Assembly: GCA_963708525.1 (NCBI GenBank)
Contig: CAVPTH010000009.1
Span: 273,351-337,350 of the forward strand
From: an uncultured Verrucomicrobiae bacterium
GTDB lineage: Bacteria > Verrucomicrobiota > Verrucomicrobiia > Limisphaerales > UBA11358
DNA length: 64,000 bases
Direction: 5' to 3'
Both the position numbers and the translations under genes were made by a program. Positions 4,331 through 59,996 of the stretch are shown piece by piece; the stretch's first letter is position 1; every line of letters starts with the position of its first letter. The notes under the pieces are model-generated. The model searched no databases, was not told the DNA's origin, and was given only the letters and a program-made list of their open reading frames with translations.

Positions 4331-4453
4331 GTATCCGGAGCGTGGCGGTTCCGGCCGCAAATGGCCAAAAATTCCAGCAGCCTTCTGCAATTCCATTGCG
4401 TCTTTCGTTATTGCTGCACGGCGCCTGAGACAGGCGCGCTCCGCCGTTTGTTT

Positions 4454-4499: not shown

Positions 4500-5000
4500 A
4501 TGGGTAAACGCCGTGAGGCGCGTGAACGCGCCGTCCAGTTTCTGTTTCAGCACGACCTGAATCCGCCGGAGGATTTGGACCGGGCGCTGGAGGAATTCTG
4601 GCAGACGCAACGCGCCGCGGCCATCGCCGAGGAAAAAGGCCCGGCGACGTGGGGTCAGCCCCACGAATTGCCGCCGCCAACCGCCGAAGAAGCCGAAACG
4701 CGCCTGTTCGCCGACCCGCTCATCCGCGGCGTTCTGGAGCATCGCGACGCGATTGACGAGCGCATCAAGTCCCACGCAAAGAACTGGGAATTTCACCGCA
4801 TTGCGACGGTGGACCGCAACATCATGCGGCTGGCCATCTATGAAATGCTCCATCGCGAGGACATTCCGCCCATTGTCAGCATCAACGAGGCGGTGGACGT
4901 CGCGAAGAAATTCTCCACCCAGGACAGCGGCAAGTTCGTCAATGGCATTCTGGACAAGATCAAGGGCGAATTGATGCGTCCCGCCCGAATCGTGAAATGA
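4500..5000 (+). CDS. nusB: transcription antitermination factor NusB
   Basis: 166 aa. RREARERAVQFLFQ at the N-terminus and VDRNIMRLAIYEML ... INEAVDVAKKF ... KFVNGILDKI. Confidence 0.9.
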   Translation: MGKRREARERAVQFLFQHDLNPPEDLDRALEEFWQTQRAAAIAEEKGPATWGQPHELPPPTAEEAETRLFADPLIRGVLEHRDAIDERIKSHAKNWEFHRIATVDRNIMRLAIYEMLHREDIPPIVSINEAVDVAKKFSTQDSGKFVNGILDKIKGELMRPARIVK

Positions 5001-8896: not shown

Positions 8897-10093
8897 ATGC
8901 TGGCAATGTCTGATACCCGATTCATGCGCCTCGCTTTGCGCCTCGCCCGGCGCGGCCAGGGGATGACCTCGCCCAACCCGATGGTCGGCGCAGTGCTGGT
9001 GAAAAGCGGTAAAATTATCGGCCGCGGCTGGCACCGGCGCGCCGGACTGCCCCATGCGGAAATCGAGGCACTTCACGACGCACAAAGACACGGCCACCAT
9101 CCCAAAGGTGCGACACTTTATGTGACCCTCGAACCGTGCAGCACGCAGGGACGCACGCCGCCCTGCACCGACGCCATTATTGCCGCGGGCATCAAACGCG
9201 TGGTGGTGGGCGCGCTGGATCCGAACCCGAAGCATTCCGGCCGGGCATTCAAGATTTTGCAGCGTGCCGGAATTGAAGTTTTTGGACTGCGCCGACACGT
9301 CGGCGCTTTGAAAAGCGGTGACATGTCACCGCACTCCAAATTAGCAAACGAATGCACCCGGCTGAACGAAGCTTTCAATCACTGGATCGTTCATCGCACA
9401 CCGTTCGTCACCGTCAAAGCCGCGATGACACTGGATGGGAAAATTGCCACGGTCAAAGGCGAATCGAAATGGATTACGGGCGAAAGAGCGCGGGCTTACG
9501 GAATGAAACTGCGGCACGAAAATGATGCGATTCTGGTCGGCATCAACACGATCCTGGCGGATGATCCGAGCCTGACGGCAAGGACGAAGATAGAGGATCG
9601 AAGAGGGAAGATAGCAAAGCCGGTTCGGAGGATTGTTCTGGATTCAATGGCGCGGACGCCGTTGAAAGCAAAAGTTGTGAGCGACAAATTCGCCCAACTG
9701 ACAACCATTGTGGTAAGCAAACAAGCACCCAAAAACCGTGTGGCCGTATTGGCCAGGCAGGTGAAAGTCCTGGTGGCTCCGACAACTGATTCAAAATTCA
9801 AAATTCAAAATTTAAAATTGGATTTGAAGTGGTTGCTCAAAAAACTGGGTTCGGAAAACGTCACCAGCCTGTTGGTGGAAGGCGGTGGTGAAGTGAACGC
9901 TTCCTTCTTGCTGGGTGGATTCGCCCGGCGCGTGGCGTTTTTCTACGCACCGAAGATTCTGGGCGGACGGGATTCGCTCAAAGCCGTGGCCGGTGAAGGC
10001 GCCAGGAACCTCAACGAAGCCCTCCAACTCCATGATATTGAATGGAAACAGCTCGGCCCGGATTTGTTGCTGACGGCGCGGGTGGCATCGTAG
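8897..10093 (+). CDS. ribD: bifunctional riboflavin biosynthesis deaminase/reductase RibD
   Basis: 398 aa. Deaminase zinc motifs HAEIEAL and TLEPCSTQGRTPPCTDA; reductase part VTVKAAMTLDGKIA ... LLVEGGGEVNASFL. The start may instead be the ATG at 8906 (MSDTRF). Confidence 0.9.
   Translation: MLAMSDTRFMRLALRLARRGQGMTSPNPMVGAVLVKSGKIIGRGWHRRAGLPHAEIEALHDAQRHGHHPKGATLYVTLEPCSTQGRTPPCTDAIIAAGIKRVVVGALDPNPKHSGRAFKILQRAGIEVFGLRRHVGALKSGDMSPHSKLANECTRLNEAFNHWIVHRTPFVTVKAAMTLDGKIATVKGESKWITGERARAYGMKLRHENDAILVGINTILADDPSLTARTKIEDRRGKIAKPVRRIVLDSMARTPLKAKVVSDKFAQLTTIVVSKQAPKNRVAVLARQVKVLVAPTTDSKFKIQNLKLDLKWLLKKLGSENVTSLLVEGGGEVNASFLLGGFARRVAFFYAPKILGGRDSLKAVAGEGARNLNEALQLHDIEWKQLGPDLLLTARVAS
9289..9332. 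repeat. double palindrome inside ribD
   Basis: GCGCCGAC-AC-GTCGGCGC (9289-9306) and GCGGTGAC-AT-GTCACCGC (9315-9332), 8 nt apart. Translated in-frame as RRHVGALKSGDMSPHS. Confidence 0.8.
9790..9824. repeat. heptamer array TTCAAAA x3 plus TTTAAAA inside ribD
   Basis: TTCAAAA TTCAAAA TTCAAAA TTTAAAA TTGGATT. Translated in-frame as DSKFKIQNLKLD. Confidence 0.8.
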
Positions 10094-24282: not shown

Positions 24283-26082
24283 ATGCCGCTTCCAAATTCT
24301 GAATTGCTGACCAGGGCCAAAGGGTTGGGATTTTCCGACCGGCAAATCGCCCATTTGACGGGCCAGACCGAGGACAAAATCCGCGCGTTGCGGAAGAAAT
24401 TAAAACTCGTGCCGAGCTACCGGCTGGTGGACACCTGTGCGGCCGAATTTGAGGCTTACACCCCGTATTATTATTCCACCTACGACCGCGGTGACGACGA
24501 GATCAAGCAGACGCCGAAGCAGAAGGTGATGATTCTCGGCGGCGGCCCGAACCGCATCGGCCAGGGCATCGAATTCGATTATTGCTGCGTGCACGCCGCG
24601 TTCGCACTCAAGGAGGACGGTTTCGAAACCCTCATGGTCAACTCGAACCCCGAGACGGTCTCGACCGATTACGACACGAGTGACAAGTTGTTCTTCGAAC
24701 CGCTCACCCTCGAGGACGTGCTGCATATTTACGAGCGCGAAGGCTGCTGGGGCGCCATCGCGCAGTTCGGCGGCCAGACGCCGCTCAACCTTGCCCTCGG
24801 CCTCCAGAAGAACGGCGTCAATATCATCGGCACCTCGCCGCAGAGCATTGAAATCGCCGAAGACCGCAAGCTGTTCGCCGCGATGTTGAACAAGCTGAAA
24901 ATTCCCCAGCCGCCCAACGGCCTGGCCACGAATGCGGAAGAGGCCCTCGTCGCCTCCAAGAAACTGGGTTACCCGGTTTTGGTCCGCCCTTCCTTCGTCC
25001 TGGGCGGGCGCGCCATGCAAATTGTTTATTCCGACGCCGAGCTGCAACATTACATGCGCTTTGCCGTTGAAGCCTCGCCGGAACGACCCGTGCTCGTGGA
25101 CAAATTTCTGGAGGATGCCACCGAGGTGGACGTGGATTGCATCGCCGACGTCGGCCATTTCAAAAAGGCCGGCGAAGGAACCATTGTCATCGGTGGCATT
25201 TTGGAACACATCGAGTTTGCGGGGGTTCACTCCGGCGATGCCGCCATGGTACTGCCGCCACACACACTTTCCAAAAAGGTCATCGACACGATTCGCGAGT
25301 ACACGCAGGCGATGGCACGTGAACTGAAGGTCGTCGGCCTGATGAATGTCCAATACGCCGTCAAGGATGAGAAGGTGTTCGTGTTGGAGGTGAACCCGCG
25401 GGCGTCACGCACCGTGCCGTTCGTGAGCAAGGCCATCGGGGTGCCGCTGGCAAAACTGGCGGCCAAAGTCATGGCCGGGAAAAGTCTGAAGGAGCTGGGG
25501 TTCACGAAAGAAATCCGGCCGGAGTATTGGGCCATCAAGGAATCTGTCTTCCCGTTCAACCGTTTTCACGGTCAGGACATCCTGCTTTCGCCGGAAATGC
25601 GGTCGACCGGTGAGGTCATGGGTCTCGATGCCGACCGCGGCATCGCTTACGCCAAATCGCAAATGGCCGCGGGCTCGCCGCTGCCGTTGAGCGGTAAAGT
25701 CTTTGTCAGCGTCAGCGACGCGCACAAGAAGTATGTGGCGCCGGTGGCCAAACAATTCGCCGAACTCGGCTTTGAGCTGGTGGCCACGAGCGGCACGGCG
25801 GCGGTTCTGGAGAAGGCAGGTCTGAAAATTCAGCGGGTGATGAAGCTGCTCGAAGGCCGGCCGAACGTCATCGATCTGCTCAAGAACAAGGAAATCCAGC
25901 TGGTCATCAATACGCCCAGCGGCGCCGCGCCGCGCGAGGATGAAGTCAAAATCCGCACGACGGCCATTTACACCGGCACGCCCATTATGACGACGTTGAG
26001 CGGCGCCAAGGCCGCCGCGCGCGGCATCGCCGCCCTCAAGAAATCCGGTTACGCCGTGAAGACGCTGCAGGAGTATCATTAG
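24283..26082 (+). CDS. carB: carbamoyl-phosphate synthase large subunit, C-terminal half only (oligomerisation tail, second ATP-grasp, MGS-like domain)
   Basis: 599 aa. It starts within the oligomerisation-domain region (LGFSDRQIAHL ... VDTCAAEFEAYTPYYYSTY), followed by ILGGGPNRIGQGIEFDYCCVHA and VNPRASRTVPFVSKA. No N-terminal half lies upstream. Confidence 0.85.
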   Translation: MPLPNSELLTRAKGLGFSDRQIAHLTGQTEDKIRALRKKLKLVPSYRLVDTCAAEFEAYTPYYYSTYDRGDDEIKQTPKQKVMILGGGPNRIGQGIEFDYCCVHAAFALKEDGFETLMVNSNPETVSTDYDTSDKLFFEPLTLEDVLHIYEREGCWGAIAQFGGQTPLNLALGLQKNGVNIIGTSPQSIEIAEDRKLFAAMLNKLKIPQPPNGLATNAEEALVASKKLGYPVLVRPSFVLGGRAMQIVYSDAELQHYMRFAVEASPERPVLVDKFLEDATEVDVDCIADVGHFKKAGEGTIVIGGILEHIEFAGVHSGDAAMVLPPHTLSKKVIDTIREYTQAMARELKVVGLMNVQYAVKDEKVFVLEVNPRASRTVPFVSKAIGVPLAKLAAKVMAGKSLKELGFTKEIRPEYWAIKESVFPFNRFHGQDILLSPEMRSTGEVMGLDADRGIAYAKSQMAAGSPLPLSGKVFVSVSDAHKKYVAPVAKQFAELGFELVATSGTAAVLEKAGLKIQRVMKLLEGRPNVIDLLKNKEIQLVINTPSGAAPREDEVKIRTTAIYTGTPIMTTLSGAKAAARGIAALKKSGYAVKTLQEYH

Positions 26083-29000
26083 TCCACTTCCACTTCGCCG
26101 CTTTGAACTCCGTCCGCCCGGGAAGTTGAAGGCGCGTGCAGCACGCGATACCCGTGCGTCCAGGGATCAATCCGGCAGGCGGCGCGATAATCGCAAAATC
26201 GACATGGCGTTTCACTGCCTTTGCGGTACGGATCCACTTTGGCCGTACCGGCAAAAATGGAACGGCCCATCCCGGTCAACTGCCTTTCCACCCGGTCCAG
26301 CAACGCCTCAAATTCCGCACGCGGCAAGGCCTCGACCGAACCCTTGCTCGTGGAGCCATCCTTGTTTCGACGATAATTGAATTGGTCGCCGGCCTTCGCG
26401 GCGGGCCGGCTGTCCAGCCTGGGCAATGCGTCCACACTGAAACGGCCTGTGTGACGGTAGGCCAGGCGCCGTGATTCCCCCGCATCGGCGAGCGCCTCGG
26501 CCCGCGTGGCACCGCTGTCATATTTACCACGCAGGTTCACATAAAAGAACCCAGCGGGAATCAACTCTTTCACCCCGGGCAGCACACGCAAACGGGTCCA
26601 ACGTCGCGCCGCCGCCAGATAGGCCGGCAATTGCAGCTGCACACCCTGCTCGAGCAGAATCCGATCAAGCTTACGATGACCGGACTTGTAATCCACCACC
26701 ACGCACCAGGCGCGGTTGGCGGTCTCCCGGAACAAATCAATCCGGTCAATTCGCCCGCGCAAGGCCAGTTGATGGCCGTCGCCGAGGGCCAGGTCCCAGG
26801 ACGGTGCTCCCCCGGCACTGAACCCGAATTCCAGCTCGGCCACCGCCGGGTCAAACTCATATTGTCCGTGCATCCACGTCACCAGCATTTCCACAAAATC
26901 CTGCAACCACCCGCCCAGCATACGCGCTGTGAACCGGCCCTGGTCATCCGCCCGCAATAAACCGTCGCGGTAGCCGGGCGCCAGTTCGGAAGCGATCTGG
27001 CCGACGAGTTTGCGTGCCGCCGCCGGCGTGAGATCGCGCCAGCGCCGGCCTTCGGCAGTCAATTGTTCGTGAAACCGCTTGAGGACTTCGTGCTGAAAAC
27101 TGCCGCGTTCGCGCGCGTCCAGCTCGAACACTTTGCGCTCCTCGGCTCGCAGACCGGAATGGACAAAAAAACGGAACGGGCACTGGGCAAATTCCTCCAA
27201 TCGGCTGACCGAACTTAGCAGCGTTGGGCCGTAAAGGGCTTCCACCAAAACCGGCGAAAGATTTTCAGCCGGATCCGGCTCGCGCAATTGGCGCAGACTC
27301 CCGGCGAGGGTTTTGACCGCCGGTAATTCAAGCAGTTCGGCCCAATTCTTGTCGCGCCCCTCGTCCCGGCCCTCTCCCCGCCCGGCAGGAAGAGGGTGGT
27401 CGGAGGTCGGGCAAAGCGAGTTAAATTCCACCAGGGGCGCAACCAATTCATGCACCTGCACCGCGTCGCGCCAATCTGCATCGGGGTGAAATTCCTCAAT
27501 TTTCAAGTCCGGCAACAACGCCTGCAAATGCGTGATGAGAGACGACGGGTTCAATGGCCGGCCACCGGTGTCGTAGCGCGAACAGGTCACAAAAAGTTTT
27601 TCGCTGGCACGGGTACAGGCGATGTAACCGAGGTAACGTTCGCGCGCGAGCTGGTCACGCAAATTCGGACCGAGCACAACTTTCTGTCGCTCCAATTCAT
27701 CCCGGTCGGCAGCAGTCAGAATCGGTGGAGCAGCGGGGGTTTCAGGAAAAACCCCCTCGTTGGCGCCCAGCACCAGGGCGAGTCGCAAATCCGGATTGCG
27801 CGCGCGGTCCACGGCCCCGATGAGCACCTGATCGAGTGCCGGCGGAACCACCCCGACGGTCAGGCCCGCCAGCCCTGCTTCCAGAATCGGCAGCCAATCG
27901 CGCAACGACAGCGACTCATCGGAAAAAGCGAGGGCGACGTTGTCCAACCAGACATTCATCTGGTCCCAGACGGTGGAGTGGATGGCTGCTTGCGGATTGC
28001 GGATAACGGATTGGTCCGATTCAACGTGACTCCAGCGTTCCAGGGTATCCTTGACCTGCAACGCACCCCAGAGGTCACGCAAAATTTCAGCCAGTTCCGG
28101 TCCGGTCGGTTGATTTTTCAGCCGGGCCAGTTGCACGGCCAGAGCTTCAAATGGCGGCAGGATTTTTTGGCGCAGCGGTTCGAGGGATTTGGCCAAACCC
28201 GGATCGGCAGCGATTTGAACCGGCTCCCGCCATTTCGCGCCGCGCCAGCCGAATTCGAGCGCGGCGTTTTCGAGCCGGTCAATCTCCGGCTGGCCCACGG
28301 CGGAAAACCCGGCCTTCAGCGCGGCAAACCAATCATCGTGCAGCCAGTTGAATGCAATCGTGCGCAGGGCACTGCGGGTGAGTTCGGCCAGCGGGTGGTG
28401 GGTTACCGATTCACGTCGATCCAGAAAGAAGGGGATCCCATAACGGCGGAAGGCGCGAGCGAGCGGTTTGTGATAATCATCCAGGTTCCGCACCAGCACC
28501 GCCGTGTCCCGAAAGCGCCCGCCGGCGCGGACGAAACGTAAAATCTCCCGCGCCGCGAACACGGCCTCGGCATCCGGATGCGCGCAAACCGCCAGGGAAA
28601 TGGCGGATTGCCGGTTGCCGGTTGCCGATTCTCCGAATTTTCCACCCGAAGTATGCGACCAATTGTGTTCGAGGTGCCCCAGTGTGGAATATCCTGCGAA
28701 GCGATTTTTCTTCCCGTCGCGCTTGAGACAGTCGACGCTGATTTTGCAATCCGGCAAAGATTCGAGGCGCTGGCGGCATTGCTCACAGGTTTTGGCGACG
28801 GCGGATGAAACGGAAAGCCAGGAATGTTTTGCGCCGGCTGCCGGTGCGGTTTCGAGGCAAAACGACAGGGTAGCGCTGTCACAAAGCGGCAAAACGGCGG
28901 CCATCAGGTCGAGCTCCTGCGGGGTCATTTCGGCAAAACCGTCGAGCCACAGGCCGCTGATTCGGAAGTCAGAAGCCTGAAGCCGGAAATCAGAGCGAAG

Positions 29001-29636
29001 AGTGACCGTGGCAAAGTTCAAAAGACCATCGGCGTCCTGCAATTCGCGCCGGTCGAGCCAATGCAAGTAGGCCTCCAGCAACAAGGCAAGGTCATGGAGC
29101 TTGTCTTGAAGTTCATGGCGCTCCGGAAAACGGGCGGTGAGCGAGCGCAATCGGGCCGGAGTGAATTGGTGCTGCTGTAATTCACTGAGCAACCGGCTGA
29201 GTTGCTGTGCAAACCCCGGCCGGCGAATGCTGGGCCGGAACAATTTCAGTTTGTCTTCATGCCGCATGACCAGGGCGCGCAGCACCATGACGCGGCCCTC
29301 GTCGTCCAACTGGGCGGGCGGTGTGACCCGTTGTTTTTCCAGGATAAATCGCGCCAGCCGGTCGAATGAAAAAATATGCAGCCGGGTATAGCCGCACAAC
29401 CCGTTGCCGGCCAGTAACTGACGTTCGAGCTGAAAGGTGGCCTGTTTCGGGGCCAGCAGCATCAGCGGCGGGCCGCTGATGCTGCTGGCCTCTTCCCGGA
29501 GTGCCGACCGGATTTCGGCCAGACAACGAAAGGTCTTGCCGCTGCCGGCGGGACCGAGAAGAAAACGCACTTGCACGCGGGATTGTTCGCGCAAAGCCGC
29601 GGTGGCGGAAAGCAATTTATTGCGTTCGGGCTGCAA
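26079..29636 (-). CDS. addB: AddB-like helicase-nuclease subunit (PD-(D/E)XK nuclease with Fe-S cysteines)
   Basis: 1185 aa. Walker A LLGPAGSGKTF near the N-terminus; C-terminal nuclease with FAQCPFRFF ... VVDYKSG ... CRFCDYRAACRI. Confidence 0.75.
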   Translation of the reverse strand: MQPERNKLLSATAALREQSRVQVRFLLGPAGSGKTFRCLAEIRSALREEASSISGPPLMLLAPKQATFQLERQLLAGNGLCGYTRLHIFSFDRLARFILEKQRVTPPAQLDDEGRVMVLRALVMRHEDKLKLFRPSIRRPGFAQQLSRLLSELQQHQFTPARLRSLTARFPERHELQDKLHDLALLLEAYLHWLDRRELQDADGLLNFATVTLRSDFRLQASDFRISGLWLDGFAEMTPQELDLMAAVLPLCDSATLSFCLETAPAAGAKHSWLSVSSAVAKTCEQCRQRLESLPDCKISVDCLKRDGKKNRFAGYSTLGHLEHNWSHTSGGKFGESATGNRQSAISLAVCAHPDAEAVFAAREILRFVRAGGRFRDTAVLVRNLDDYHKPLARAFRRYGIPFFLDRRESVTHHPLAELTRSALRTIAFNWLHDDWFAALKAGFSAVGQPEIDRLENAALEFGWRGAKWREPVQIAADPGLAKSLEPLRQKILPPFEALAVQLARLKNQPTGPELAEILRDLWGALQVKDTLERWSHVESDQSVIRNPQAAIHSTVWDQMNVWLDNVALAFSDESLSLRDWLPILEAGLAGLTVGVVPPALDQVLIGAVDRARNPDLRLALVLGANEGVFPETPAAPPILTAADRDELERQKVVLGPNLRDQLARERYLGYIACTRASEKLFVTCSRYDTGGRPLNPSSLITHLQALLPDLKIEEFHPDADWRDAVQVHELVAPLVEFNSLCPTSDHPLPAGRGEGRDEGRDKNWAELLELPAVKTLAGSLRQLREPDPAENLSPVLVEALYGPTLLSSVSRLEEFAQCPFRFFVHSGLRAEERKVFELDARERGSFQHEVLKRFHEQLTAEGRRWRDLTPAAARKLVGQIASELAPGYRDGLLRADDQGRFTARMLGGWLQDFVEMLVTWMHGQYEFDPAVAELEFGFSAGGAPSWDLALGDGHQLALRGRIDRIDLFRETANRAWCVVVDYKSGHRKLDRILLEQGVQLQLPAYLAAARRWTRLRVLPGVKELIPAGFFYVNLRGKYDSGATRAEALADAGESRRLAYRHTGRFSVDALPRLDSRPAAKAGDQFNYRRNKDGSTSKGSVEALPRAEFEALLDRVERQLTGMGRSIFAGTAKVDPYRKGSETPCRFCDYRAACRIDPWTHGYRVLHAPSTSRADGVQSGEVEVD
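27357..27410. repeat. degenerate copy of the CCCTCTCC...GAGGG hairpin element inside addB
   Basis: CCCCTCGTCCCGGCCCTCTCCCCGCCCGGCAGGAAGAGGGTGGTCGGAGGTCGGG resembles 3810-3869. It encodes HPLPAGRGEGRDEGR on the minus strand. Confidence 0.5.
28606..28633. repeat. heptamer array GRTTGCC x3 plus GATTCTC inside addB
   Basis: GATTGCC GGTTGCC GGTTGCC GATTCTC. It encodes ESATGNRQS on the minus strand. Confidence 0.55.
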
Positions 29637-31715: not shown

Positions 31716-34700
31716 ATGCCGAAGAAACGCCGGCTGCTTCCAGGCGCCGGGCTCCTGTTTTGCTTTTTTGCCTTCGCCCTGCCGCTGTGGGCGGACACGG
31801 TGGACCGGTCTGAGTCCCCTTTCATTGTGGATGGCTGGAGTACGAAACAGGGCCTTCCAGGAAGTGCCGTTATCTCCATGATTCAAACCCGGGACGGCTA
31901 TCTCTGGTTGGGCACCCAATATGGTCTGGTCCGGTTCGATGGGATTCATTTCACCGTTTTTGACGAGGGCAATACCCCTGGTTTGAATAACGACCAAATC
32001 GACTATTTGTTCCAGGACACCCACTCAAACCTTTGGATTGGCACGGACGCCGGCGGGGTGGCCCTGGAAACGGGAGGCCGGCTGGAAAATTTCGCTTTAG
32101 GACGCAGCGGTCGCGAGGGCCGGCTGGTGTCGGCCTGCGAGGATTCCACCGGAACCGTATGGTTTTATACGGCGGACGCCCACCTGGGGCGGTATCAAAA
32201 CGGGAAAATGGAGGTCTGGGATTTTCGTTTCAAAACGCCGGCGATCACCCGGATGTTGGCCGCGGAAAAATCCGGTGTGCTGTGGATTGGTGAGGACTGG
32301 GTGGACCAGGAACGGAACGTTTCGCTTCTATTTTCCTTTCGCCCCGCCAACGTCAGTCCGCCGGCGTTTGCCATTGAACAACAGATTCCGGTTCAGCGGC
32401 TGGATTACCTTCTGGCCAGCCAACGCGGTGGAACCTGGCGGTTCGTGGACGGCCAAGTCCAAAAATGGGGTTCCAACCAGCTCGAAAGAAATTACGGGGC
32501 ATATCCCTGGGGTAATTTGCGGATTTTAGCCGCGTGCGAGGATCCCGCGGGCAATTTGATCGTTGGTACGCGGGGAGCCGGAGTTTTCTGGTTTGAACCG
32601 GATGGAACCTATCGACAAATCTCCACCGCGCAGGGTTTGTCATCGCCTTATGTGCTTTCCTTGTGCCTGGACCGCGCCGGTAATCTCTGGGTGGGCACCG
32701 ACGGGGGTGGTTTGGATCGCGTCAAACGGAAAATTTTTAACACGCCGGACGGAGTGCATCCCTGGGACGCTCAGTCACTGGCCGGTGACGCGCAGGGTGG
32801 TCTTTGGGCCGCTTTCTTTACCCATGGCGTGACTTGCTGGCGGACCAATGTCGCGCAAGACTTTGGCGTGGGCCAGGGCTCCAACGCCTGGACGGTGCTG
32901 GTGGATCATCAACAGCGCGTTTGGGCGGGGACCTGGTACGAAGGGCTGTTTCAATTTGAAAACGATCGTTTCGTGCCGGCACCCGACACGGAAATCCTCC
33001 GTTCTCAGATTTCCGTTTTGTATGAAGATAAGGCCGGACAAGTGTGGGCCGGCACCCCCAACGGCCTGGGACTTTGGAACGGACTGATTTGGAAAACCTA
33101 TACGACCCGGGACGGTCTCTCCGGAAACGTGGTTTCCGCAATGGCCGAAGACGCTGCAGGGAATCTCTGGATCGGAACGAAAGACGGCGGATTAACCTGT
33201 TTTAGAGCTGACAAATTTGTCGCTTATCCGGCATCGGAAAACGGCCCGCCGGGCAACGATATTTCCTGTCTTTACGTCGACAAAGGGGGTGACTTGTGGG
33301 TCGGCACCTCGGGTTATGGGCTGGCTCGCTATCATCAGGGGCGATGGGCACACTATTCAAAGCGAGAGGGCCTGGTCAGCGACAGTATCAGTTATCTCAT
33401 CGAGGATGACACGGGGAATTTATGGATTGGTTCCAATCTGGGGTTGATCCGCATTCCACGAGAACTCCTGAACGCTTCGCTCCAGGGAACATTGGATTTT
33501 TCCGCCTGTCGGATTTATAGCGAAGCGGACGGTCTGCCGACGCGTGAATGTTCGAGCGGTTCGCAGCCGGCCGCGTGCCGCACGAGTGACGGCCGCCTGT
33601 GGTTTCCCACGACCCGGGGCCTGGCGTATGTGAATCCGGCCGGGCTAACCCCCAATCTGCAGCCGCCACCGGTCATGATCGAATCGGTGCTGGTAGACGG
33701 CCGGGAGCAAAAGACCAACCGCATCGATTCGATCTGGCCGCCCGCCATCGTGATTCCACCGGGTCGCGACCGGTTGGAAATCCATTACACCGGCCTGAAT
33801 CTTTCCGCACCAAACGAAGTGCGATTCCGGTACCTGCTCGCCGGACACGAAACGGCCTGGACGGAGGCTGGGGACACGCGCGTGGCGTTTTACAACAAAC
33901 TGCCGCCCGGAGATTATCAGTTCCAGATCGAAGCTTGCAATGAAGACGGTATTTGGAACAAAAAAAGCAGCGAGCTGGCCATCACCGTGCAACCGCAATT
34001 CTGGCAGACGGGCTGGTTTCGGCTGGTGGCCATCCTGGTGTTCCTGGGCCTGGTTGCTGCCGTGGTGCGCTATCTTTCCACGCAGAAATTACATCGCCAG
34101 TTGCAGGCGCTCCGACAGCGGGAGGCGCTGGAACAGGAACGTTCCCGCATCGCCCGCGACCTCCACGATCAACTGGGCGCCAATCTCACCCAGGTGGCGT
34201 TGTTGGGTGAAATGGCCGAAGCCGACCGGCATTCCCCGGAGGAGATCGCGTCCCACGCGCAGCAAATTTCCCAGACGGCGCGTGAGACCACGCACGCGCT
34301 CGATGAAATTGTCTGGGCGGTCAATCCTTCCAATGACACCCTGGACGGCCTGATCACGTATGCCTGCAAGTACGCGCAGGAATACCTGGGCATGGCCGGG
34401 TTGCATTACCGCGCCGAGGTGCCGCCGCAACTGCCGGTGGCCATCATTCCACCGGAGGTGCGCCATAATGTCTTTCTGGCATTTAAAGAAGCGGTCAACA
34501 ATGTCGTCAAACATGCCCAGGCCACCGAAGCCCGGATCCGATTACGATTGCAGCCTGACCGTTTTGTTCTGGAAATTGAAGACGACGGGCGCGGTGTTGG
34601 CAAACCGGATGCACCGGCAGCACGGACGCGGAACGGCCTGCGGAACATGCGCAAACGGATGGAAGATATTCATGGCGAGTTTTTCATGGCCGGCGGGGCC

Positions 34701-34748
34701 AAAGGCGGAACCATTGTCCGCCTGGTGGTGCCCATCACCATGAAATGA
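31716..34748 (+). CDS. sensor histidine kinase with periplasmic beta-propeller/Y_Y_Y sensor, HisKA_3 type
   Basis: 1010 aa. Repeated LWIGT/LWVGT propeller blades, one TM helix, then RSRIARDLHDQLGANL (H-box) and a HATPase region NVVKHAQAT ... DDGRG. Confidence 0.85.
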   Translation: MPKKRRLLPGAGLLFCFFAFALPLWADTVDRSESPFIVDGWSTKQGLPGSAVISMIQTRDGYLWLGTQYGLVRFDGIHFTVFDEGNTPGLNNDQIDYLFQDTHSNLWIGTDAGGVALETGGRLENFALGRSGREGRLVSACEDSTGTVWFYTADAHLGRYQNGKMEVWDFRFKTPAITRMLAAEKSGVLWIGEDWVDQERNVSLLFSFRPANVSPPAFAIEQQIPVQRLDYLLASQRGGTWRFVDGQVQKWGSNQLERNYGAYPWGNLRILAACEDPAGNLIVGTRGAGVFWFEPDGTYRQISTAQGLSSPYVLSLCLDRAGNLWVGTDGGGLDRVKRKIFNTPDGVHPWDAQSLAGDAQGGLWAAFFTHGVTCWRTNVAQDFGVGQGSNAWTVLVDHQQRVWAGTWYEGLFQFENDRFVPAPDTEILRSQISVLYEDKAGQVWAGTPNGLGLWNGLIWKTYTTRDGLSGNVVSAMAEDAAGNLWIGTKDGGLTCFRADKFVAYPASENGPPGNDISCLYVDKGGDLWVGTSGYGLARYHQGRWAHYSKREGLVSDSISYLIEDDTGNLWIGSNLGLIRIPRELLNASLQGTLDFSACRIYSEADGLPTRECSSGSQPAACRTSDGRLWFPTTRGLAYVNPAGLTPNLQPPPVMIESVLVDGREQKTNRIDSIWPPAIVIPPGRDRLEIHYTGLNLSAPNEVRFRYLLAGHETAWTEAGDTRVAFYNKLPPGDYQFQIEACNEDGIWNKKSSELAITVQPQFWQTGWFRLVAILVFLGLVAAVVRYLSTQKLHRQLQALRQREALEQERSRIARDLHDQLGANLTQVALLGEMAEADRHSPEEIASHAQQISQTARETTHALDEIVWAVNPSNDTLDGLITYACKYAQEYLGMAGLHYRAEVPPQLPVAIIPPEVRHNVFLAFKEAVNNVVKHAQATEARIRLRLQPDRFVLEIEDDGRGVGKPDAPAARTRNGLRNMRKRMEDIHGEFFMAGGAKGGTIVRLVVPITMK

Positions 34749-34833
34749 AGAAGGTAGAATGAAGAATGAAGAAAACATTTCGCGGTGGTTCAATCCTTGT
34801 TTCTTCATTCTGCATTCTTCATTCTGCATTTGA
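34742..34833. repeat. hairpin of inverted heptamer arrays AGAATGA x5 / CATTCTK x5 filling the kinase-regulator spacer
   Basis: Left arm: GAAATGA AGAAGGT AGAATGA AGAATGA AGAAAAC (34742-34776). 22-nt loop. Right arm: GTTTCTT CATTCTG CATTCTT CATTCTG CATTTGA (34799-34833). Confidence 0.85.
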
Positions 34834-34836: not shown

Positions 34837-35463
34837 ATGCCCATTTCCGTCTCCATTGTAGAGGACAACGAAAAGCTGCGCGGGACGCTGGTGCGGGTGA
34901 TGAATCGCGCCGACGGTTTTCGCTGCGTCAGCGATTATGGAAACGCCGAAGACGCGCTGAAAAACCTGCCGCAAGTCCGTCCCGACGTGGTGCTCATGGA
35001 CATCAACCTGCCTGGTATGAACGGCGTCGAATGCGTACGCCAACTGAAGCAACTGCTGCCGCAGACCCAGGTGATGATGCTGACGGTTTACGAGGACACG
35101 GAAAACATTTTCAACGCGCTGGCGGCCGGCGCCAATGGCTACATGCTCAAACGCACCTCCAGCAAGGAACTATTGGAAGCCATTCACGATGTGCAACGCG
35201 GCGGTTCGCCCATGACGATGCACATCGCGCGCAAGGTGGTGCAGTCCTTCCAAAAAACTGCCGCCACGGCGCACCCCACCGAAAACCTTTCTGAACGCGA
35301 ACAGCAGGTGCTCGACCTGTTGAGCCAGGGACTGATGTACAAGGAAATTGCCGACAAGCTCGCCATCAGCTACGAAACGGTTCACACCTACATCCGCCGC
35401 ATTTACGAAAAACTCCAGGTCCGGACGCGGACCGAAGCCGTGGCCAAGTTTCTCCGCCGATAA
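34837..35463 (+). CDS. NarL/LuxR-family response regulator
   Basis: 208 aa. Receiver domain (VEDNEKL ... DVVLMDINLPGMNG ... MLTVYED ... GYMLK) and LuxR HTH (LSEREQQVLDLLSQGLMYKEIADKLAISYETVHTYIRRIYEKLQV). Confidence 0.9.
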   Translation: MPISVSIVEDNEKLRGTLVRVMNRADGFRCVSDYGNAEDALKNLPQVRPDVVLMDINLPGMNGVECVRQLKQLLPQTQVMMLTVYEDTENIFNALAAGANGYMLKRTSSKELLEAIHDVQRGGSPMTMHIARKVVQSFQKTAATAHPTENLSEREQQVLDLLSQGLMYKEIADKLAISYETVHTYIRRIYEKLQVRTRTEAVAKFLRR

Positions 35464-36750: not shown

Positions 36751-36836
36751 TGGTGGTAGGTGATGGATTCGAACCATCGAAGGCGTAAGCCAGCAGATTT
36801 ACAGTCTGCCCCCGTTGGCCACTTGGGTAACCTACC
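36751..36836 (-). tRNA. tRNA-Tyr (anticodon GTA), CCA encoded
   Basis: The reverse complement GGTAGGTTACCCAAGTGGCCAACGGGGGCAGACTGTAAATCTGCTGGCTTACGCCTTCGATGGTTCGAATCCATCACCTACCACCA folds by hand. Acceptor stem GGTAGGT/ACCTACC. Anticodon stem GCAGA/TCTGC with loop CTGTAAA. Long variable arm. T arm GATGG-TTCGAAT-CCATC. Confidence 0.9.
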
Positions 36837-36890
36837 GACCGTCCCGGAACGTGGGGAGTGCAGATTAAGCCAAAGCACTGCTTTTGTCTC

Positions 36891-36972
36891 AAGTTCAAAG
36901 TTCAACGTTCAGAGCTCAGTGTTGGACGCGGCATCGGCCAACTTTGCACTTTGAACCCGCAACCCGAAACGT
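36891..36972. repeat. hairpin of inverted heptamer arrays AAGTTCA x4 / complementary NNAACNN x5
   Basis: Left arm: AAGTTCA AAGTTCA ACGTTCA GAGCTCA (36891-36918). 19-nt loop. Right arm: CCAACTT TGCACTT TGAACCC GCAACCC GAAACGT (36938-36972). Confidence 0.8.
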
Positions 36973-36985: not shown

Positions 36986-38332
36986 ATGTTCGATTCGTTA
37001 AGCGGCAAGCTCCAGAACGCCTTCCGCAATCTGCGCGGGCTCGGAAAGATTTCCGAGGCCAATGTTGCCGATTCCCTGCGCGAGGTCCGCATGGCGTTGC
37101 TGGAGGCTGACGTGAATTTCAAAGTCGCCCGCGACTTCATCGAGCGCGTCAAGACCAAGGCCATCGGCGCGGATGTCGTCCAGAGCATCCAGCCCGGCCA
37201 GCAAATCATCAAAATCATCCACGACGAACTGGTCGATCTGCTCGGCTCGCAAAATGCCGGGCTGAATTTGGGCGCCAACCCGAGTTGCCTCCTGATGGTC
37301 GGTCTGCATGGCTCGGGCAAAACCACGTCGAGCGGCAAGCTGGCCCGCCTGCTCCAGAAACAAGGCCGCCAGCCGTTGCTGGTGGCGGCGGACGTCTATC
37401 GCCCGGCGGCCATGGACCAATTGGACACGCTCGGTAAACAACTGGAACTGCCGGTTTTTGTGAAACGCGGTGAAACGGATGTTTCGAAAATTGCGCGCGA
37501 AGCGCTGGACTTTGCAAAGGCGAACAGTCGCAATGTGCTGATTTTTGACACCGCCGGACGGTTGCAGATTGACGAGCCGCTGGTGCAGGAGCTGGTCCGC
37601 CTGCGCGACCTGGTGAAGCCGCAGGAAATATTGCTCGTGCTCGATGCCGCCACCGGCCAGGAAGCCGTGAATGTCGCCACGCACTTCGATCAGGCATTGC
37701 AAATTACCGGCTCGATCCTGACCAAGTTGGACGGCGATGCCCGCGGTGGTGCGGCATTAAGCATGAGAGCCGTCACGGGCAAGCCCATCAAGTTCGCCGG
37801 CTTCGGCGAAAAACTGGACGAGTTCGAACCGTTTCATCCCGAACGGATGGCGTCGCGGATTCTCGGCATGGGCGACGTCGTCAGCCTCGTCGAAAAGGCC
37901 GCTGAAGCCGTGAATTTGGAGGACGCCAAACGCCTCGAGGAAAAGATGCGCAAGGGCGAGTTCACGCTGGAGGATTTTCTGGAGCAATTGCGCGCGATGA
38001 AAAAGCTTGGCTCGCTTGAAAGCGTGGTCGGGATGTTGCCGGGCGGCGCGGAGATGCTGAAACAGCAGGGCGACTTGTCGAAACAGGAAAAGGAATTCAA
38101 GCGGATGGAAGGGATGATTTGCGGGATGACGCCAAAGGAGCGCAAAAGCCCGCAAATCCTGAATGCAAACCGCCGCCGCCGCATCGCCGCCGGCAGCGGT
38201 GTGAGTGTAACGGAACTGAACACCATGCTGAACAAGTTCGGTCAGATGCAACAGATGATGAAGAAGATGGGCAAGCTCCAGCGCATGATGGCCAAAATGG
38301 GCGGCGGTCTGCCAGGCATGTTGCGGCGATGA
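36986..38332 (+). CDS. ffh: signal recognition particle protein Ffh
   Basis: 448 aa. MFDSLSGKLQNAFRNLRG start, GLHGSGKTTSSGKLA, DTAGRL, TKLDGDARGGAALS, Met-rich M domain. Confidence 0.95.
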   Translation: MFDSLSGKLQNAFRNLRGLGKISEANVADSLREVRMALLEADVNFKVARDFIERVKTKAIGADVVQSIQPGQQIIKIIHDELVDLLGSQNAGLNLGANPSCLLMVGLHGSGKTTSSGKLARLLQKQGRQPLLVAADVYRPAAMDQLDTLGKQLELPVFVKRGETDVSKIAREALDFAKANSRNVLIFDTAGRLQIDEPLVQELVRLRDLVKPQEILLVLDAATGQEAVNVATHFDQALQITGSILTKLDGDARGGAALSMRAVTGKPIKFAGFGEKLDEFEPFHPERMASRILGMGDVVSLVEKAAEAVNLEDAKRLEEKMRKGEFTLEDFLEQLRAMKKLGSLESVVGMLPGGAEMLKQQGDLSKQEKEFKRMEGMICGMTPKERKSPQILNANRRRRIAAGSGVSVTELNTMLNKFGQMQQMMKKMGKLQRMMAKMGGGLPGMLRR

Positions 38333-56988: not shown

Positions 56989-59148
56989 TCACACAATCTC
57001 CACCGGACATTTGGGCAGGGCGTCGAGAAAGGATTGGCCGTATTGCTTCGTTAAAACCCGGTTGTCCAGCACCACGATAATGCCGGTATCGGTTTTGGTG
57101 CGAATCAATCGGCCGACGCCCTGGCGGAATTTCAGAATCGCCTCGGGCAGGGAAAATTCGCCGAAGGAATTGCCGCCGCGCGCTTCAATCGCCTCAATGC
57201 GCGCCTCGATCAGCGGATGGTCCGGCACGGCAAACGGCAACCGCGTGATGATGACGTTGCTCAACGCCTCGCCCGGCACGTCCACGCCCTGCCAGAAACT
57301 GTCCGTGCCGAACAGCACCGAATCCACGTCGTCCTTGAATTTCTCCAGCATGGTCGAGCGCGGCGTGCCGGTGCCCTGCACAAAACAGGCGACGCCGAGC
57401 TTGTCGAAAAACGGCGCCATCCGCTCGCCCAATTCCTGCATGAGTTTGTAATTGGTGAACAGCACGAACGCCTTGCCGTGGGTTTGCTTGACGAAATGCG
57501 CAATCCAATGTTCAAGCGCGTCGGCATAGCCGGCCTCGCGCGGATCGGGCATTTTTTTGGCCACGAAAATTTTCATCTGCCGCTCGTATTCAAACGGCGT
57601 GCCGACCTGAAGTTGGGTGGCGGATTCGGCGCCGACGCGGCGGATAAAATACTGGAGACCCGGAGTGGAATTTTTGGTTTTGTCAGTAGTCAGTAGTTCG
57701 TAGTTGGTAGCCTTTAACTTTGGCTGTCCAGGTACTGACTGCTGGCTTCTGACTACTGACTGCGTTGCGAGCGTCGCGCTGGTCATGACGATGCTGGTGT
57801 CACTTTCAAACAAACGCCGGCGCAGAAACTCCGCCACGTCAACTGGCGCAGCGTTCAGGGTAAGGTTTTTGTGCGCCTTGCCACCGCGTTCCACCCAATA
57901 AACATGGTCACCGGCGCTCTGCTCGAGAAACGCCTTCACCTCCACCCGCAATTCGTCCAATCGCCGGTTGCATTCAATCAATTCCTGCCCGATGTCCTTG
58001 TCTTCGCTCGTCTTGATCATATCGCCGACGGCCTCACGCAACCGTTGAATCGACAACGTAACATTGTCCTTCACGAGTTCGGCCCGGCGAATGCGAAGTT
58101 CCGTCCATTTCCGACCGGCGGGGCGGGAGTCGGTCGAACCGAACCTGTTTTTACCTGCGGATTTTTGGATTTCCTCACAGGCGGTCTCAACATTTTCAAA
58201 AAATTTGTCGGCTTCGCCAAGAATGTCGGCCACCAGCTTCACCGCTCCACCTTGACGCAATGTGCCTAGCAGGCCCTTTTCCGTGCGCGGATTCCACAAC
58301 CGGTTCAAAGCGTAGCGCACCTGACCGCTCGACACGCTCAGCCCGATGTGTTTGGACGCGACCGGTTCCATCTGGTGGGCCTCGTCGAAAATCACAAAGT
58401 CGTTCTTAAACAGGATGCCGCCGTCCATCTCTTCGTCCACGCCGCCCAGCAACGTGAAAAACAGTGTGTGATTCAACACCAGCACGTCTGACGAGAGGAA
58501 TTTATTCCGGGCACGCTGGAAAAAACACACGCCGTGGTCTTTGGCGAAATCGGACGGGAAGCCACACACCTTGGGCGAACACAGGCCGCGCTCGGAGCAG
58601 ACCTGTGCCCAGACCTTCGGGTCCGGCTCGACCTCAAAATCCGACAGGCTGCCGTCCCGGGTTTCCTTCGACCACTCGTAAATGCGCTGGAGTTCCTCGG
58701 CCTCGGAGGAGGTGAACAGGTTGCCGGACTGCTGCATGGCCTTTTGCAGCCGGCGGGTGCAGAGATAGTTCGCGCGGCCTTTGAGCATGGAAAAGCTGAA
58801 CTTCACGGGCAAAATTTGCGCCAGCATCGGCAGGTCCTTTTCAGTGAGCTGCTCCTGCAAATTGATGGTGTGCGTGGAAACGATGGCCTTTTTCTTTTCG
58901 GCGACGGCGAATAAAATGGCCGGAATCAGGTAGGCGAGCGATTTGCCGACACCGGTACCGGCCTCGACGGCGAGATGTTCGCGGTTCTGCAACGCCCGCG
59001 CCACCGCCACGGCCATTTCCTGCTGTTGCGGGCGGAATTCAAAATTCTTCGCGCGCGACAGGATGCCCGACGGGGAAAAAATTTCCTCAACCTGTCTGAC
59101 CAGATCGATGGCTGCCCCGGCGGGTTGAGATTCGATGACAGAAATCAT
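56989..59148 (-). CDS. dinG: DinG/Rad3-family Fe-S ATP-dependent DNA helicase
   Basis: 719 aa. AVEAGTGVGKSLAYL (Walker A), DEAH box IFDEAHQME, Fe-S cysteines (YLCTRR ... VCSERGLCSPKVCG ... VCFF), C-terminal FWQGVDVPGE ... QGVGRLIR. Confidence 0.85.
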   Translation of the reverse strand: MISVIESQPAGAAIDLVRQVEEIFSPSGILSRAKNFEFRPQQQEMAVAVARALQNREHLAVEAGTGVGKSLAYLIPAILFAVAEKKKAIVSTHTINLQEQLTEKDLPMLAQILPVKFSFSMLKGRANYLCTRRLQKAMQQSGNLFTSSEAEELQRIYEWSKETRDGSLSDFEVEPDPKVWAQVCSERGLCSPKVCGFPSDFAKDHGVCFFQRARNKFLSSDVLVLNHTLFFTLLGGVDEEMDGGILFKNDFVIFDEAHQMEPVASKHIGLSVSSGQVRYALNRLWNPRTEKGLLGTLRQGGAVKLVADILGEADKFFENVETACEEIQKSAGKNRFGSTDSRPAGRKWTELRIRRAELVKDNVTLSIQRLREAVGDMIKTSEDKDIGQELIECNRRLDELRVEVKAFLEQSAGDHVYWVERGGKAHKNLTLNAAPVDVAEFLRRRLFESDTSIVMTSATLATQSVVRSQQSVPGQPKLKATNYELLTTDKTKNSTPGLQYFIRRVGAESATQLQVGTPFEYERQMKIFVAKKMPDPREAGYADALEHWIAHFVKQTHGKAFVLFTNYKLMQELGERMAPFFDKLGVACFVQGTGTPRSTMLEKFKDDVDSVLFGTDSFWQGVDVPGEALSNVIITRLPFAVPDHPLIEARIEAIEARGGNSFGEFSLPEAILKFRQGVGRLIRTKTDTGIIVVLDNRVLTKQYGQSFLDALPKCPVEIV
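57682..57760. repeat. hairpin of inverted heptamer arrays GTCAGTA x4 / TACTGAC x4, in-frame inside dinG
   Basis: Left arm: GTCAGTA GTCAGTA GTTCGTA GTTGGTA (57682-57709). 23-nt loop. Right arm: TACTGAC TGCTGGC TTCTGAC TACTGAC (57733-57760). Confidence 0.85.
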
Positions 59149-59996
59149 TTATCAAAGGGTCGGCTGCTGATAACGACCTTCAGCCCGGCCGTTTTACCGG
59201 GCGCGAGCGAAAGCTTATTCTGCTTTACGTTGCCGGACTCCACGCAAACCATCGTTTTGTGTTCCGCCGGATCGAAATCGTCGGGCAATTTCTGCGTGGT
59301 CCACGGATTCCAGACGACGGTGGAATGGGAGCTGAATTTTTCCACGCGGATGGTCCGATTCAGGTTTTCATCACAGATTTCCACCGGACTGGTCGCGTTG
59401 GGATATACGCGGTTGGTTTCCCTCGTGATATGCAACGTGGAACCGTTTTCCAGTCTGCGGACACCGGCCGCACCGGCAGCGAAGTCGTCAAACGGCAAGC
59501 CTTGCAGACCGGTAACGAAGACCTGCGCGATGTCGCCGACGTGAAAATAAGTATGCAAACAATTTTCGATCACCTGCATTTCCGCACAGGAATCATTCGT
59601 GGTCATCAACTCCATGGTCAGCGTGTCCGCCACCGTCACGACGAATACCGTTCGGAGACCTTTCCAGGCTTCGCGCCCGGGAATCTGCGGCAGCGCAAAG
59701 GTCAAAGTCACCGCCCCGGCCGGTACAGCGGAGGTTTTGACCAGCTGCCACTCGCTGACGCGCGCGAATCCATGGGAAGGTTCATGGTCGCGATTGCCGA
59801 ACCACGGATAACAAACGGGCACCCCGCCGCGAATGGGCTGGCCCGGCGCGAAAAAACTTTTGGTGCTCAGGAACAGCAGAGGCGCTTCGCCGTTCTTTTG
59901 AAACCCGGTAATATGCGCGCCGTGAAGATAAATTTCCGCCGTGCTCCGGCCGGTGGCGACGTCAATTTTTGGCAGATCACCGTTGCCCCGGGCCAA
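59145..59996 (-). CDS. aldose 1-epimerase family protein (D-hexose-6-phosphate mutarotase-like)
   Basis: 283 aa. IRGGVPVCYPWFGN ... HGFAR ... CLHTYF ... ESGN. TTG start. Its stop overlaps the dinG start (ATGA). Confidence 0.8.
   Translation of the reverse strand: MARGNGDLPKIDVATGRSTAEIYLHGAHITGFQKNGEAPLLFLSTKSFFAPGQPIRGGVPVCYPWFGNRDHEPSHGFARVSEWQLVKTSAVPAGAVTLTFALPQIPGREAWKGLRTVFVVTVADTLTMELMTTNDSCAEMQVIENCLHTYFHVGDIAQVFVTGLQGLPFDDFAAGAAGVRRLENGSTLHITRETNRVYPNATSPVEICDENLNRTIRVEKFSSHSTVVWNPWTTQKLPDDFDPAEHKTMVCVESGNVKQNKLSLAPGKTAGLKVVISSRPFDK

Follow-up and report, generated by a model that had tools for sequence, protein, structure and literature searches.

An in-frame hairpin of heptanucleotide repeats lies in the gene of a DinG/XPD-family helicase on a 64,000-nt stretch of contig CAVPTH010000009.1 from an uncultured Verrucomicrobiae bacterium (positions 273,351 to 337,350 of the forward strand; this whole stretch is called the window below, and coordinates without a locus name refer to it). 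Comparison with orthologous genes revealed an empty state and many different inserts at the same position, and to judge from these alleles the site is a multi-allelic hot spot and not the scene of a one-off event. We consider it probable that the hairpin is a tolerated passenger repeat at this hot spot, which was pre-formed and copied in and for which no function in DinG is required. In-frame palindromes are known from Rickettsia (Rickettsia palindromic elements, RPEs) and as repetitive extragenic palindromes (REPs) in a few genomes, usually one genome each, so that their origin and fate are poorly documented. Here, one codon position in a conserved repair gene can be traced through more than 300 natural alleles, which show the empty state, fresh perfect and decayed hairpins, slippage, stop-codon repair and cassette replacement. 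With this allele series, one can measure directly how such insertions are born, decay and are replaced.

The hairpin is translated as part of DinG

The hairpin is 79 bp long (57682-57760). Read on the + strand, it consists of a 5′ arm, GTCAGTA GTCAGTA GTTCGTA GTTGGTA (57682-57709), a 23-nt loop or spacer, GCCTTTAACTTTGGCTGTCCAGG (57710-57732), and a 3′ arm, TACTGAC TGCTGGC TTCTGAC TACTGAC (57733-57760). On the coding strand the latter reads GTCAGTA GTCAGAA GCCAGCA GTCAGTA and encodes QSVVRSQQSV, and the + strand 5′ arm becomes the 3′ arm, encoding ..TNYELLTTD. The complete translation, QSVVRSQQSV-PGQPKLKA-TNYELLTTD, stands between the segments TSATLA and GLQYFIRRVG. Sequence, arms, loop and translation are as an earlier note on this DNA had described them.

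Tandem Repeats Finder detected a period of 7 in each arm, with four units per arm (at least three tandem 7-nt copies make a heptanucleotide repeat), of which the inner ones are degenerate. The 28-nt arms, 23 nt apart, were found to be 75% complementary, and the outer 12 bp pair perfectly. When the window was searched with the 14-mer GTCAGTAGTCAGTA, allowing up to two mismatches, four matches were obtained, all of them in the hairpin arms, compared to 0.04 expected. The segment folds with −29.9 kcal/mol as mRNA (z = −4.7) and with −17.9 kcal/mol as DNA (z = −5.3), and none of 200 shuffled sequences folded as well. Rfam, searched at gathering thresholds, gave two tRNAs and nothing else in the window; none of the hairpins matched a known RNA family.

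Across the hairpin only the DinG frame is open, with stops in all other five frames; the earlier note had stated that one of three frames stays open. Since 7 and 3 have no common divisor, all frames are closed by any perfect array of at least three stop-containing units. Indeed, when the perfect arrays were restored, one arm gained an in-frame TAG and the other an in-frame TGA, and the degeneracy of the inner units sits exactly at these stop-creating positions. The window copy is thus open only because these positions mutated. The suggestion that an insertion or expansion was retained because it kept the frame therefore has to be amended: the insertion is in frame, but keeping the frame was not sufficient, as the stop-creating positions had to change. 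Moreover, the closest relative (locus L004, 97% identical) lacks exactly 21 nt, or three units, between two GTCAGTA direct repeats, evidently a trace that slippage left after out-of-frame products had been lost.

The insertion follows helicase motif III

The host gene, dinG (56989-59148, − strand), is intact and encodes a DinG/XPD-family Fe-S helicase of 719 aa, as supported by the open reading frame (ORF), Pfam and structure matches. Pfam searches found the DEAD and Helicase_C_2 domains, and the closest solved structure is that of E. coli DinG (6fwr, E 4e-45). An AlphaFold model built from 115 diverse sequences reached a mean predicted local distance difference test score (pLDDT) of 90.6 and a predicted template modelling score of 0.91; an earlier run with 53 close homologues (≥85% identical) had a mean pLDDT of 40.6 and was not usable. 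Compared to 6fwr_A with Foldseek, the model gave an E-value of 1.6e-42 and a template modelling score of 0.69-0.71. C130 is invariant in the alignment of close relatives (A1). The diverse alignment (A3) shows C190 in every sequence, with conservation of 90% or more at C195 and C208. The protein thus combines superfamily 2 (SF2) helicase motifs, Fe-S cysteines and an XPD-like four-domain fold.

In an alignment with 110 diverse homologues, residues 463-492 have an occupancy of 0.01-0.12 compared to 0.99-1.0 in both flanks, which means that they face gaps in 88-99% of the homologues. Among 105 diverse DinG representatives (one per 50%-identity cluster), the distance between TSATL and SPFDY is 23-30 aa in 84, with a median of 26; in the window DinG it is 56. 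From occupancy and spacing, the insertion comprises 90 nt or 30 codons (57673-57762, − strand), encoding QSVVRSQQSVPGQPKLKATNYELLTTDKTK, and it is nearly filled by the 79-nt hairpin, the boundaries of the two coinciding. It forms the larger part of a hypervariable linker (residues 462-496, 105 nt, 57661-57765, − strand) that measures 21-141 nt in orthologues. About 30 residues are thus extra in this protein, as the earlier note had proposed. We also looked in distant relatives for a homologous segment of the same length without a repeat structure, and found none. The insertion is old, being shared down to about 80% protein identity, and is by now partly decayed.

The inserted peptide coincides with the sole internal stretch of low confidence in the model (residues 461-495, block means 65, 53, 44 and 72), in which pLDDT falls below 50 at residues 468-471 and 480-491. 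It is modelled as a coil, preceded by strand 453-457 with motif III (TSATL) and followed by helix 496-505 (GLQYFIRRVG). This agrees with the expectation of a surface loop. Motif III closes RecA domain 1 in SF2 helicases. Because RecA domain 1 ends there, the insertion is predicted, from the general organisation of these helicases and from the model, to lie at the crossing from helicase domain 1 to helicase domain 2.

A minority of distant DinG proteins have 38-130 aa at the TSATL linker. Five of them, from other lineages (P0265, P0275, P0300, P0271 and P0283), carry inserts of 50-130 aa exactly there. Since distant lineages also have inserts at this position, the permissive site is a property of the whole DinG family, and the linker offers a natural permissive site for engineered insertions in DinG/XPD helicases.

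Relatives carry different cassettes at the same site

A scan of species-representative genomes yielded 80 orthologous loci (denoted by L and a number), all from metagenome-assembled genomes (MAGs) of Verrucomicrobia subdivision 3 (Limisphaerales/Pedosphaera-type), with 79-97% protein identity. In all 80, dinG is intact and the frame is kept. In addition, 240 further proteins from subdivision 3 were found using each half of DinG as the query. Over loci and proteins, the linker has either 7 aa, which is the empty state, or 14-55 aa. The empty linker (21 nt, TNSKSQT-like) is conserved and was found at 17 of the 80 loci, and the remaining linkers are 45-141 nt long, always a multiple of three, with 84 nt at 19 of the 80 loci. 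The 306 sequences contain 250 distinct linker peptides, among which 28 aa is the modal length (63 of 250).

Nearly all long linkers are hairpins at the DNA level and belong to about a dozen cassette types. The GTCAGTA cassette is present in the window and in L001, L003, L004, L008, L036 and L055, and its loop in the window is homologous to the loops of the same type in L001, L004, L008, L036 and L055. Other heptamer hairpins at the site are built from GTCGAGA/CCTCGAC, TTTCAAG/CTTGAAA, GTTGAAG/CTTCAAC, GTGTTGC/GCAACAC and GCGGTGC units, and one-armed GAAGTCA/GAATTCA arrays were found in L022, L063 and L080. Furthermore, two kinds of short-palindrome doublets occur at the site, for instance GTAGGACAGGCGTCGCGCCTGTCTC-loop-GAGACAGGCGCGACGCCTGTCCTAC, which are GTAG-tagged REP dimers (REPINs). 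These REPIN cassettes have 84 nt, an overall size equal to that of the window cassette.

The folding energies of the alleles range from −65 to −4 kcal/mol and form a continuum from perfect to almost erased stems. A covariation test was done with 10 alleles of 84 nt from the best-sampled type. Of the cells, 83.6% were paired compared to 83.0% in shuffled data, and two compensatory pairs were observed where 2.3 were expected. By this measure, the stem pairing is inherited and decaying, and not maintained. A selected RNA structure was considered as well and was dropped because this test, done on the best-aligned cassette type, gave no sign of covariation.

We regard it as improbable that the hairpin, as mRNA or DNA, or the peptide loop has been selected for a function; candidates would be a contact loop for other proteins, a site of mRNA processing, or a pause in translation that helps the protein to fold or to take up its Fe-S cluster. 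Such a function would fit the finding that 79% of the species (63 of 80) have an insert at the exact domain junction, in a conserved position directly after motif III, as well as the strongly modal length of 28 aa and the fact that most inserts fold well. Against it stand the missing covariation within a type, the many nearly unpaired alleles (−4 to −12 kcal/mol), and the 17 of 80 species, together with most of the wider DinG family, that do without an insert. Moreover, the peptides of different cassette types are unrelated and the loop is predicted to be disordered.

Cassettes and their flanks are probably exchanged over short tracts

When a neighbour-joining (NJ) tree was built from DinG with the linker left out, the cassette types were scattered over it; the tree rests on one protein, and all comparison genomes are MAGs. 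The dinG genes of L016, L018 and L019, for example, are 92% identical in DNA, and yet the cassette is a REPIN in the first, a GTCGAGA hairpin in the second and a TTTCAAG hairpin in the third. The nearest neighbour had the same type in 32 of 75 cases, and overall the types are weakly clustered (0 of 2000 permutations). Between proteins that are at least about 93% identical the cassette type persists, and it switches at 90-92%.

The sequence next to the linker follows the cassette. Pairs of the same type showed an excess of flank identity of 0.106 at +3 to +51 nt and of 0.028 at −30 to −1 nt (0 of 1000 permutations for each), and no excess at +51 to +111. Co-segregation thus extends over about 30 nt upstream and 50 nt downstream, includes synonymous sites and is visible in individual discordant taxa. 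In the window, the approximate mosaic tract in which flanking DinG variants co-segregate with cassette type across species corresponds to 57607-57795 (− strand). A recombination test with a 120-nt sliding window gave nothing beyond the windows overlapping the linker, and the signal is seen only at a resolution of 15-60 nt. Taken together, discordance and mosaic flanks suggest, as the simplest reading, an exchange of alleles between lineages over short tracts. The lineage is abundant in soil and peat and uncultured, and the hypervariable cassette is a marker by which its strains can be told apart at a fine scale.

The material calls for some caution, as most sequences are MAG contigs and palindromes and repeats are hard to assemble. 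In addition, public runs cover the window in fragments: none holds its sequence fully (best word share 0.31), and only fragmentary Logan contigs were obtained. Nevertheless, a mis-assembly of metagenomic reads that produced the hairpin or the mosaic pattern is highly improbable. The cassette occurs in at least seven independent assemblies (L001, L003, L004, L008, L036, L055 and L201), in which its divergence is proportional to that of the gene. A contig from an unrelated soil run spans 57707-57857 with one mismatch and supports the loop and one arm. The large contigs of L018 (897 kb) and L019, which are named like long-read assemblies, differ in type at 92% gene identity, and no frame is lost in the 80 genes. 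Because such contigs show the same discordance, short-read chimeras are an unlikely cause. The doubt about an assembly artefact that was raised in the earlier note is thereby largely removed.

Origin of the cassettes

Copies of some cassettes are also found at other loci. The arms and loop ends of the REPIN recur unchanged away from DinG in L018 (13993-14063) and L058 (6162-6236 and 6802-6870). Within DinG, the REPIN arms of L009 and L016 are identical although the two genes share only 83% identity, which argues for a recent insertion from conserved source copies. Copies of the GTTGAAG hairpin outside DinG were found in L064 (7825-7910) and L057 (1060-1140). They share with the DinG copies details that are not part of the unit, namely the inner end GGTTGAAAGTTC, the mixture of GTTGAAG and GTTGCAG and the 3′ end CAACTC. 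Copying between loci thus takes place, to judge from what dispersed REPINs and GTTGAAG hairpins have in common with those in DinG.

Further sites of the dispersed doublet GTAGGACAGGCGTCGCGCCTGTCTC...GAGACAGGCGCGACGCCTGTCCTAC were noticed in L016 (13695-13765), L065 (9019), L080 (6243) and L014 (7564), and one of the L058 doublets is translated in-frame in a tRNA-dihydrouridine synthase (Dus) gene (..NENGDRRDACPTLPEP..). A gene for a REP-associated tyrosine transposase (RAYT) between the two L058 REPIN1 copies was considered and rejected, since the interval holds the Dus gene with its in-frame REP. An integron attC site, with its 7-nt core sites, was also considered; GTTGAAG/CTTCAAC does not fit RYYYAAC/GTTRRRY.

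Metagenomes were scanned with GTCAGTAGTCAGNAG, which gave at least 120 loci with a GC content of 28-70%, among the matches listed none in DinG. These matches include 96 loci with at least three units and 33 with an inverted partner, and a few look verrucomicrobial. All 33 hairpins among the matches listed read 5′-(GTCAGTA)n-loop-(TACTGAC)n-3′. The same tendency was seen in 37 verrucomicrobial heptamer hairpins, where the 5′ arm has more G than C in 31 and less in 4 (p = 3e-6); orthologous sites make these counts less independent. In 1.37 Mb (the window and the 80 loci), we counted 133 arrays with period 7, compared to 12, 12 and 9 with periods 8, 9 and 10 at comparable stringency. This is an excess of about 10-fold, and 93 of the arrays are outside DinG, many of them paired as hairpins.

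In the reading that we prefer, a pre-formed hairpin from a dispersed family of heptamer repeats would have been copied into the DinG linker, by template switching or by a mechanism that, like that of REPINs, involves a single-strand hairpin, and would have survived because the frame stayed open or was re-opened. Afterwards, slippage would have altered it in steps of 7 nt, with only net multiples of three retained, and the inner stem would have been eroded by substitutions that avoid stops, on top of neutral decay. Short-tract homologous recombination between lineages would replace one allele by another, a process that the palindrome itself might stimulate, and the encoded peptide would be a flexible hydrophilic loop.

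Several observations weigh against this reading. A donor copy of the GTCAGTA cassette was not found in the window, in the related loci or among the metagenome matches listed, and neither the 64-kb window nor 1.3 Mb of related loci hold a second GTCAGTA hairpin outside DinG. No transposase, and no RAYT in particular, was identified in the 64 kb of this genome that were examined, which belong to a contig of at least 414 kb. The loops of the dispersed GTCAGTA hairpins among the metagenome matches listed are unrelated to the DinG loop, and the DinG alleles of this type share both loop and tail, from which a single origin of the DinG cassette follows. Some insert is kept in 63 of 80 species, with a modal length of 28 aa, which could reflect selection for a long linker. 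The case for recombination is built on a single gene, with an NJ tree computed from MAG sequences. Finally, the head of the insert, ACGCAGTCAG, equals the end of the empty linker (..TCGCAGTCA|G) in a 90%-identical relative, and the one-armed GAAGTCA/GAATTCA arrays of other lineages resemble the native linker AATTCCAAATCGCAG.

These last two observations fit a birth in place, in which the array grew by slippage from the native 21-nt linker and the second arm arose by intrastrand template switching, without any movement into the gene; units shared between loci would then reflect a common mutational preference. Such an origin is possible but rather unlikely, and we rank it second after copying-in. 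It is in line with the excess of heptamer arrays and with the preference for 7-nt slippage in prokaryotes (Mrazek 2007, as summarised in PMC4679880). The native linker AATTCCA AATCGCA itself consists of two imperfect heptamers, the empty allele of the 90%-identical relative, L202, ends in CGCAGTCAG, the same letters with which the insert begins, and a CAAATCT type resembles an expanded native linker. In addition, units similar to those of the one-armed arrays in L022, L063 and L080 are present in the window arm (GTCAGAA GCCAGCA). What speaks against birth in place are the perfect copies of a dispersed REPIN at the site in sister species, the heptamer hairpin family whose copies outside DinG share non-unit details, and insertion boundaries that coincide with the hairpin. 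Moreover, a polarity as strict as the one observed, both among the metagenome matches listed (33 of 33) and in the verrucomicrobial hairpins (31 versus 4), is not predicted by random template switching.

Heptamer arrays elsewhere in the window and in metagenomes

Among the metagenome matches listed, an ORF starts within 25 nt after TACTGAC-sense arrays in 25 of 91 cases, compared to 10 of 91 for the opposite sense. Together with the polarity rule, this association with start codons points to a specific mechanism or factor. One could go further and see in the heptamer-array hairpins a distinct, cross-phylum, REPIN-like class not yet described as such, built from two inverted arrays of a 7-nt unit that is specific to a locus or family, with the G-rich arm obligatorily 5′ and the C-rich arm typically abutting a start codon, which can be copied into genes. 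The motif III linker of DinG in Verrucomicrobia subdivision 3 would then be a hot spot of cassette exchange, at which these hairpins and REPINs take each other's place through short-tract recombination across species boundaries. We put this forward tentatively, as a proposal that has somewhat less than even chances of being right.

Four intergenic array sites were found in the window. An ACGATTT/AAATCGT hairpin lies between two − strand genes (276-383); its unit recurs in eight related loci at a conserved orthologous intergenic site, and L038 and L069 have it in other places. A (GAATGAA)n-loop-(TTCATTC)n hairpin (34744-34830) fills the 88-nt spacer between the genes of a hybrid histidine kinase (31716-34748) and a LuxR-type response regulator (34837-35463), beginning at the stop codon of the kinase and ending 6 nt short of the regulator ATG. 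A CAAAGTT/AACTTTG hairpin (36890-36960) is located between a tRNA gene (36754-36836, − strand) and ffh/SRP54 (36986-38332, + strand). Lastly, inverted TCCAAAG/CTTTAGC arrays (4297-4324 and 4451-4495), about 130 nt apart, bound the spacer between a glyoxalase gene (3885-4280, − strand) and nusB (4500-5000, + strand). Each of them is in sense orientation just upstream of its own start codon, and because of this orientation and their separation they may be leader elements rather than one hairpin.

Arrays were also observed inside other genes. The gene of the DNA-repair protein AddB (26079-29636, − strand; ADDB_N and PD-(D/E)XK domains, 1185 aa) contains three in-frame heptamer arrays (27990-28011, 28603-28631 and 28963-28988) with the units TTGCGGA, TTGCCGG and TCAGAAG, the last of which belongs to a unit family in common with the DinG arm. 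Two of the AddB arrays coincide with gaps of 3 and 5 aa in B. subtilis AddB (3u44_B). In ribD (8897-10093, + strand), an in-frame insert of about 9 aa relative to solved RibD structures is found at an ATTCAAA array (TDSKFKIQNLKLDLKW; 9787-9820). A second RibD insert relative to the solved structures, of 16 aa (9289-9335), lies at the junction of the deaminase and reductase domains and is encoded by a double palindrome, GCGCCGACACGTCGGCGC...GCGGTGACATGTCACCGC (..RRHVGALKSGDMSPHS..). A nested palindromic repeat, CCCTCACCCCGGCCCTCTCCCATCGGATGGGAGAGG...GGGTGAGGG (3808-3872, −38 kcal/mol), follows a TTTTGGT array; 21 instances of its CCCTCACCC/GGGTGAGGG motif were counted, spread over 14 of 81 sources.

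With respect to its neighbourhood, the start of dinG overlaps the stop of the upstream gene of the aldose-1-epimerase family (59145-59996, − strand, Aldose_epim) by 4 nt (59145-59148), an arrangement that suggests translational coupling. The epimerase-dinG pair is also kept in L202, where a DDE transposase gene is found 3′ of dinG.

Comparison with known repeat systems

The earlier note had compared the hairpin with RPEs, which are described as short palindromic repeats inserted in-frame in conserved protein genes and tolerated as a surface peptide (Ogata et al. 2000, cited in PMC3733652). The window element resembles them as an in-frame palindrome at a permissive site in a host gene that stays intact. 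The host is a conserved protein gene, alignment gaps and the low-pLDDT coil mark the site as permissive and surface-exposed, and the 28-nt, 75% complementary arms are able to form a hairpin. However, RPEs form families in Rickettsia that share a conserved consensus (about 100-150 bp), whereas the arms in this verrucomicrobium are arrays of a 7-nt unit. Furthermore, no second copy of the window cassette with the same loop was found outside DinG in the window or the related loci, and in relatives the site holds many unrelated cassettes. The comparison therefore stands for the behaviour of the element, which is like that of RPEs and REPs, and not as an assignment to the RPE family.

REPINs have been described by Bertels and Rainey (2011, PMC3116915). 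Intragenic GTAG/CGTC REP dimers are inverted doublets that form a long hairpin and encode 20-30 aa inside ORFs (Di Nocera et al. 2013, PMC3733652). According to the same paper, their number is highest in the verrucomicrobium Opitutus terrae, and genes of DNA repair and replication are over-represented among their hosts, a trend into which DinG and AddB of the window fit; DinG is not among the genes named there. In sister species, the same DinG site carries true GTAG-REP doublets, and in the REPIN1 cassettes of L009 and L016 each unit is an imperfect palindrome of 20-40 nt, as is typical of REPs. Like a REPIN, the window element has two inverted units with a short spacer that form one long hairpin (28-nt arms, 23-nt spacer), and it shares the polarity, with the G-rich or GTAG arm 5′ and the CTAC arm 3′. 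GTAG is found at every unit junction of its 5′ arm and CTAC in its 3′ arm; the GTCGAGA, GTTGAAG and TTTCAAG units lack GTAG. Unlike REPs, its arms are direct heptamer arrays, and inverted repeats were found only between the arms. Apart from the unit itself, we found no consensus that would define a family.

By its unit, the element is closer to the short tandemly repeated repetitive (STRR) sequences of cyanobacteria and to the TAACTGA heptamer repeats of Beggiatoaceae, Cyanobacteria and Bacteroidetes (MacGregor 2015, PMC4679880), as well as to the GGGACCG/MTYCTGA heptamer repeats of Geobacter (PMC2700814). Those repeats have 2-6 copies, are present at many loci per genome, mostly intergenic, and are oriented towards start codons, ending a few nt before them (PMC4679880, PMC2700814). 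The TACTGAC arrays and the intergenic arrays of the window show the same orientation bias, and the excess of period 7 agrees with this class; the window copy in DinG is intragenic and does not share the intergenic, start-oriented location. STRR-type repeats are described as direct repeats, with one inverted case found among 170 sets in BOGUAY, whereas here inverted pairs of arrays are common and have a fixed polarity, many units occur per genome and copies are translated in genes. In Borg elements, perfect direct repeats with a unit length divisible by three are in-frame and create disordered regions (PMC9879509). The likeness lies in fast-evolving repeats that add an intrinsically disordered peptide; the unit in the window, on the other hand, is 7 nt long and arranged in inverted fashion, and perfect arrays of a stop-containing unit close all frames.

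Our literature search gave no paper on heptamer hairpins in Verrucomicrobia and nothing relevant for the array sequence itself. On the basis of these comparisons, the window element would best be described as RPE- or REPIN-like in its behaviour and STRR-type in its repeat unit, without assignment to either the RPE or the REP family. It thereby links two separate literatures, one on heptanucleotide STRR-type repeats and the other on REP/REPIN hairpins. In-frame palindromes were already known; new here are arms built as heptamer arrays, the rule that their polarity follows and a cassette site with many alleles.

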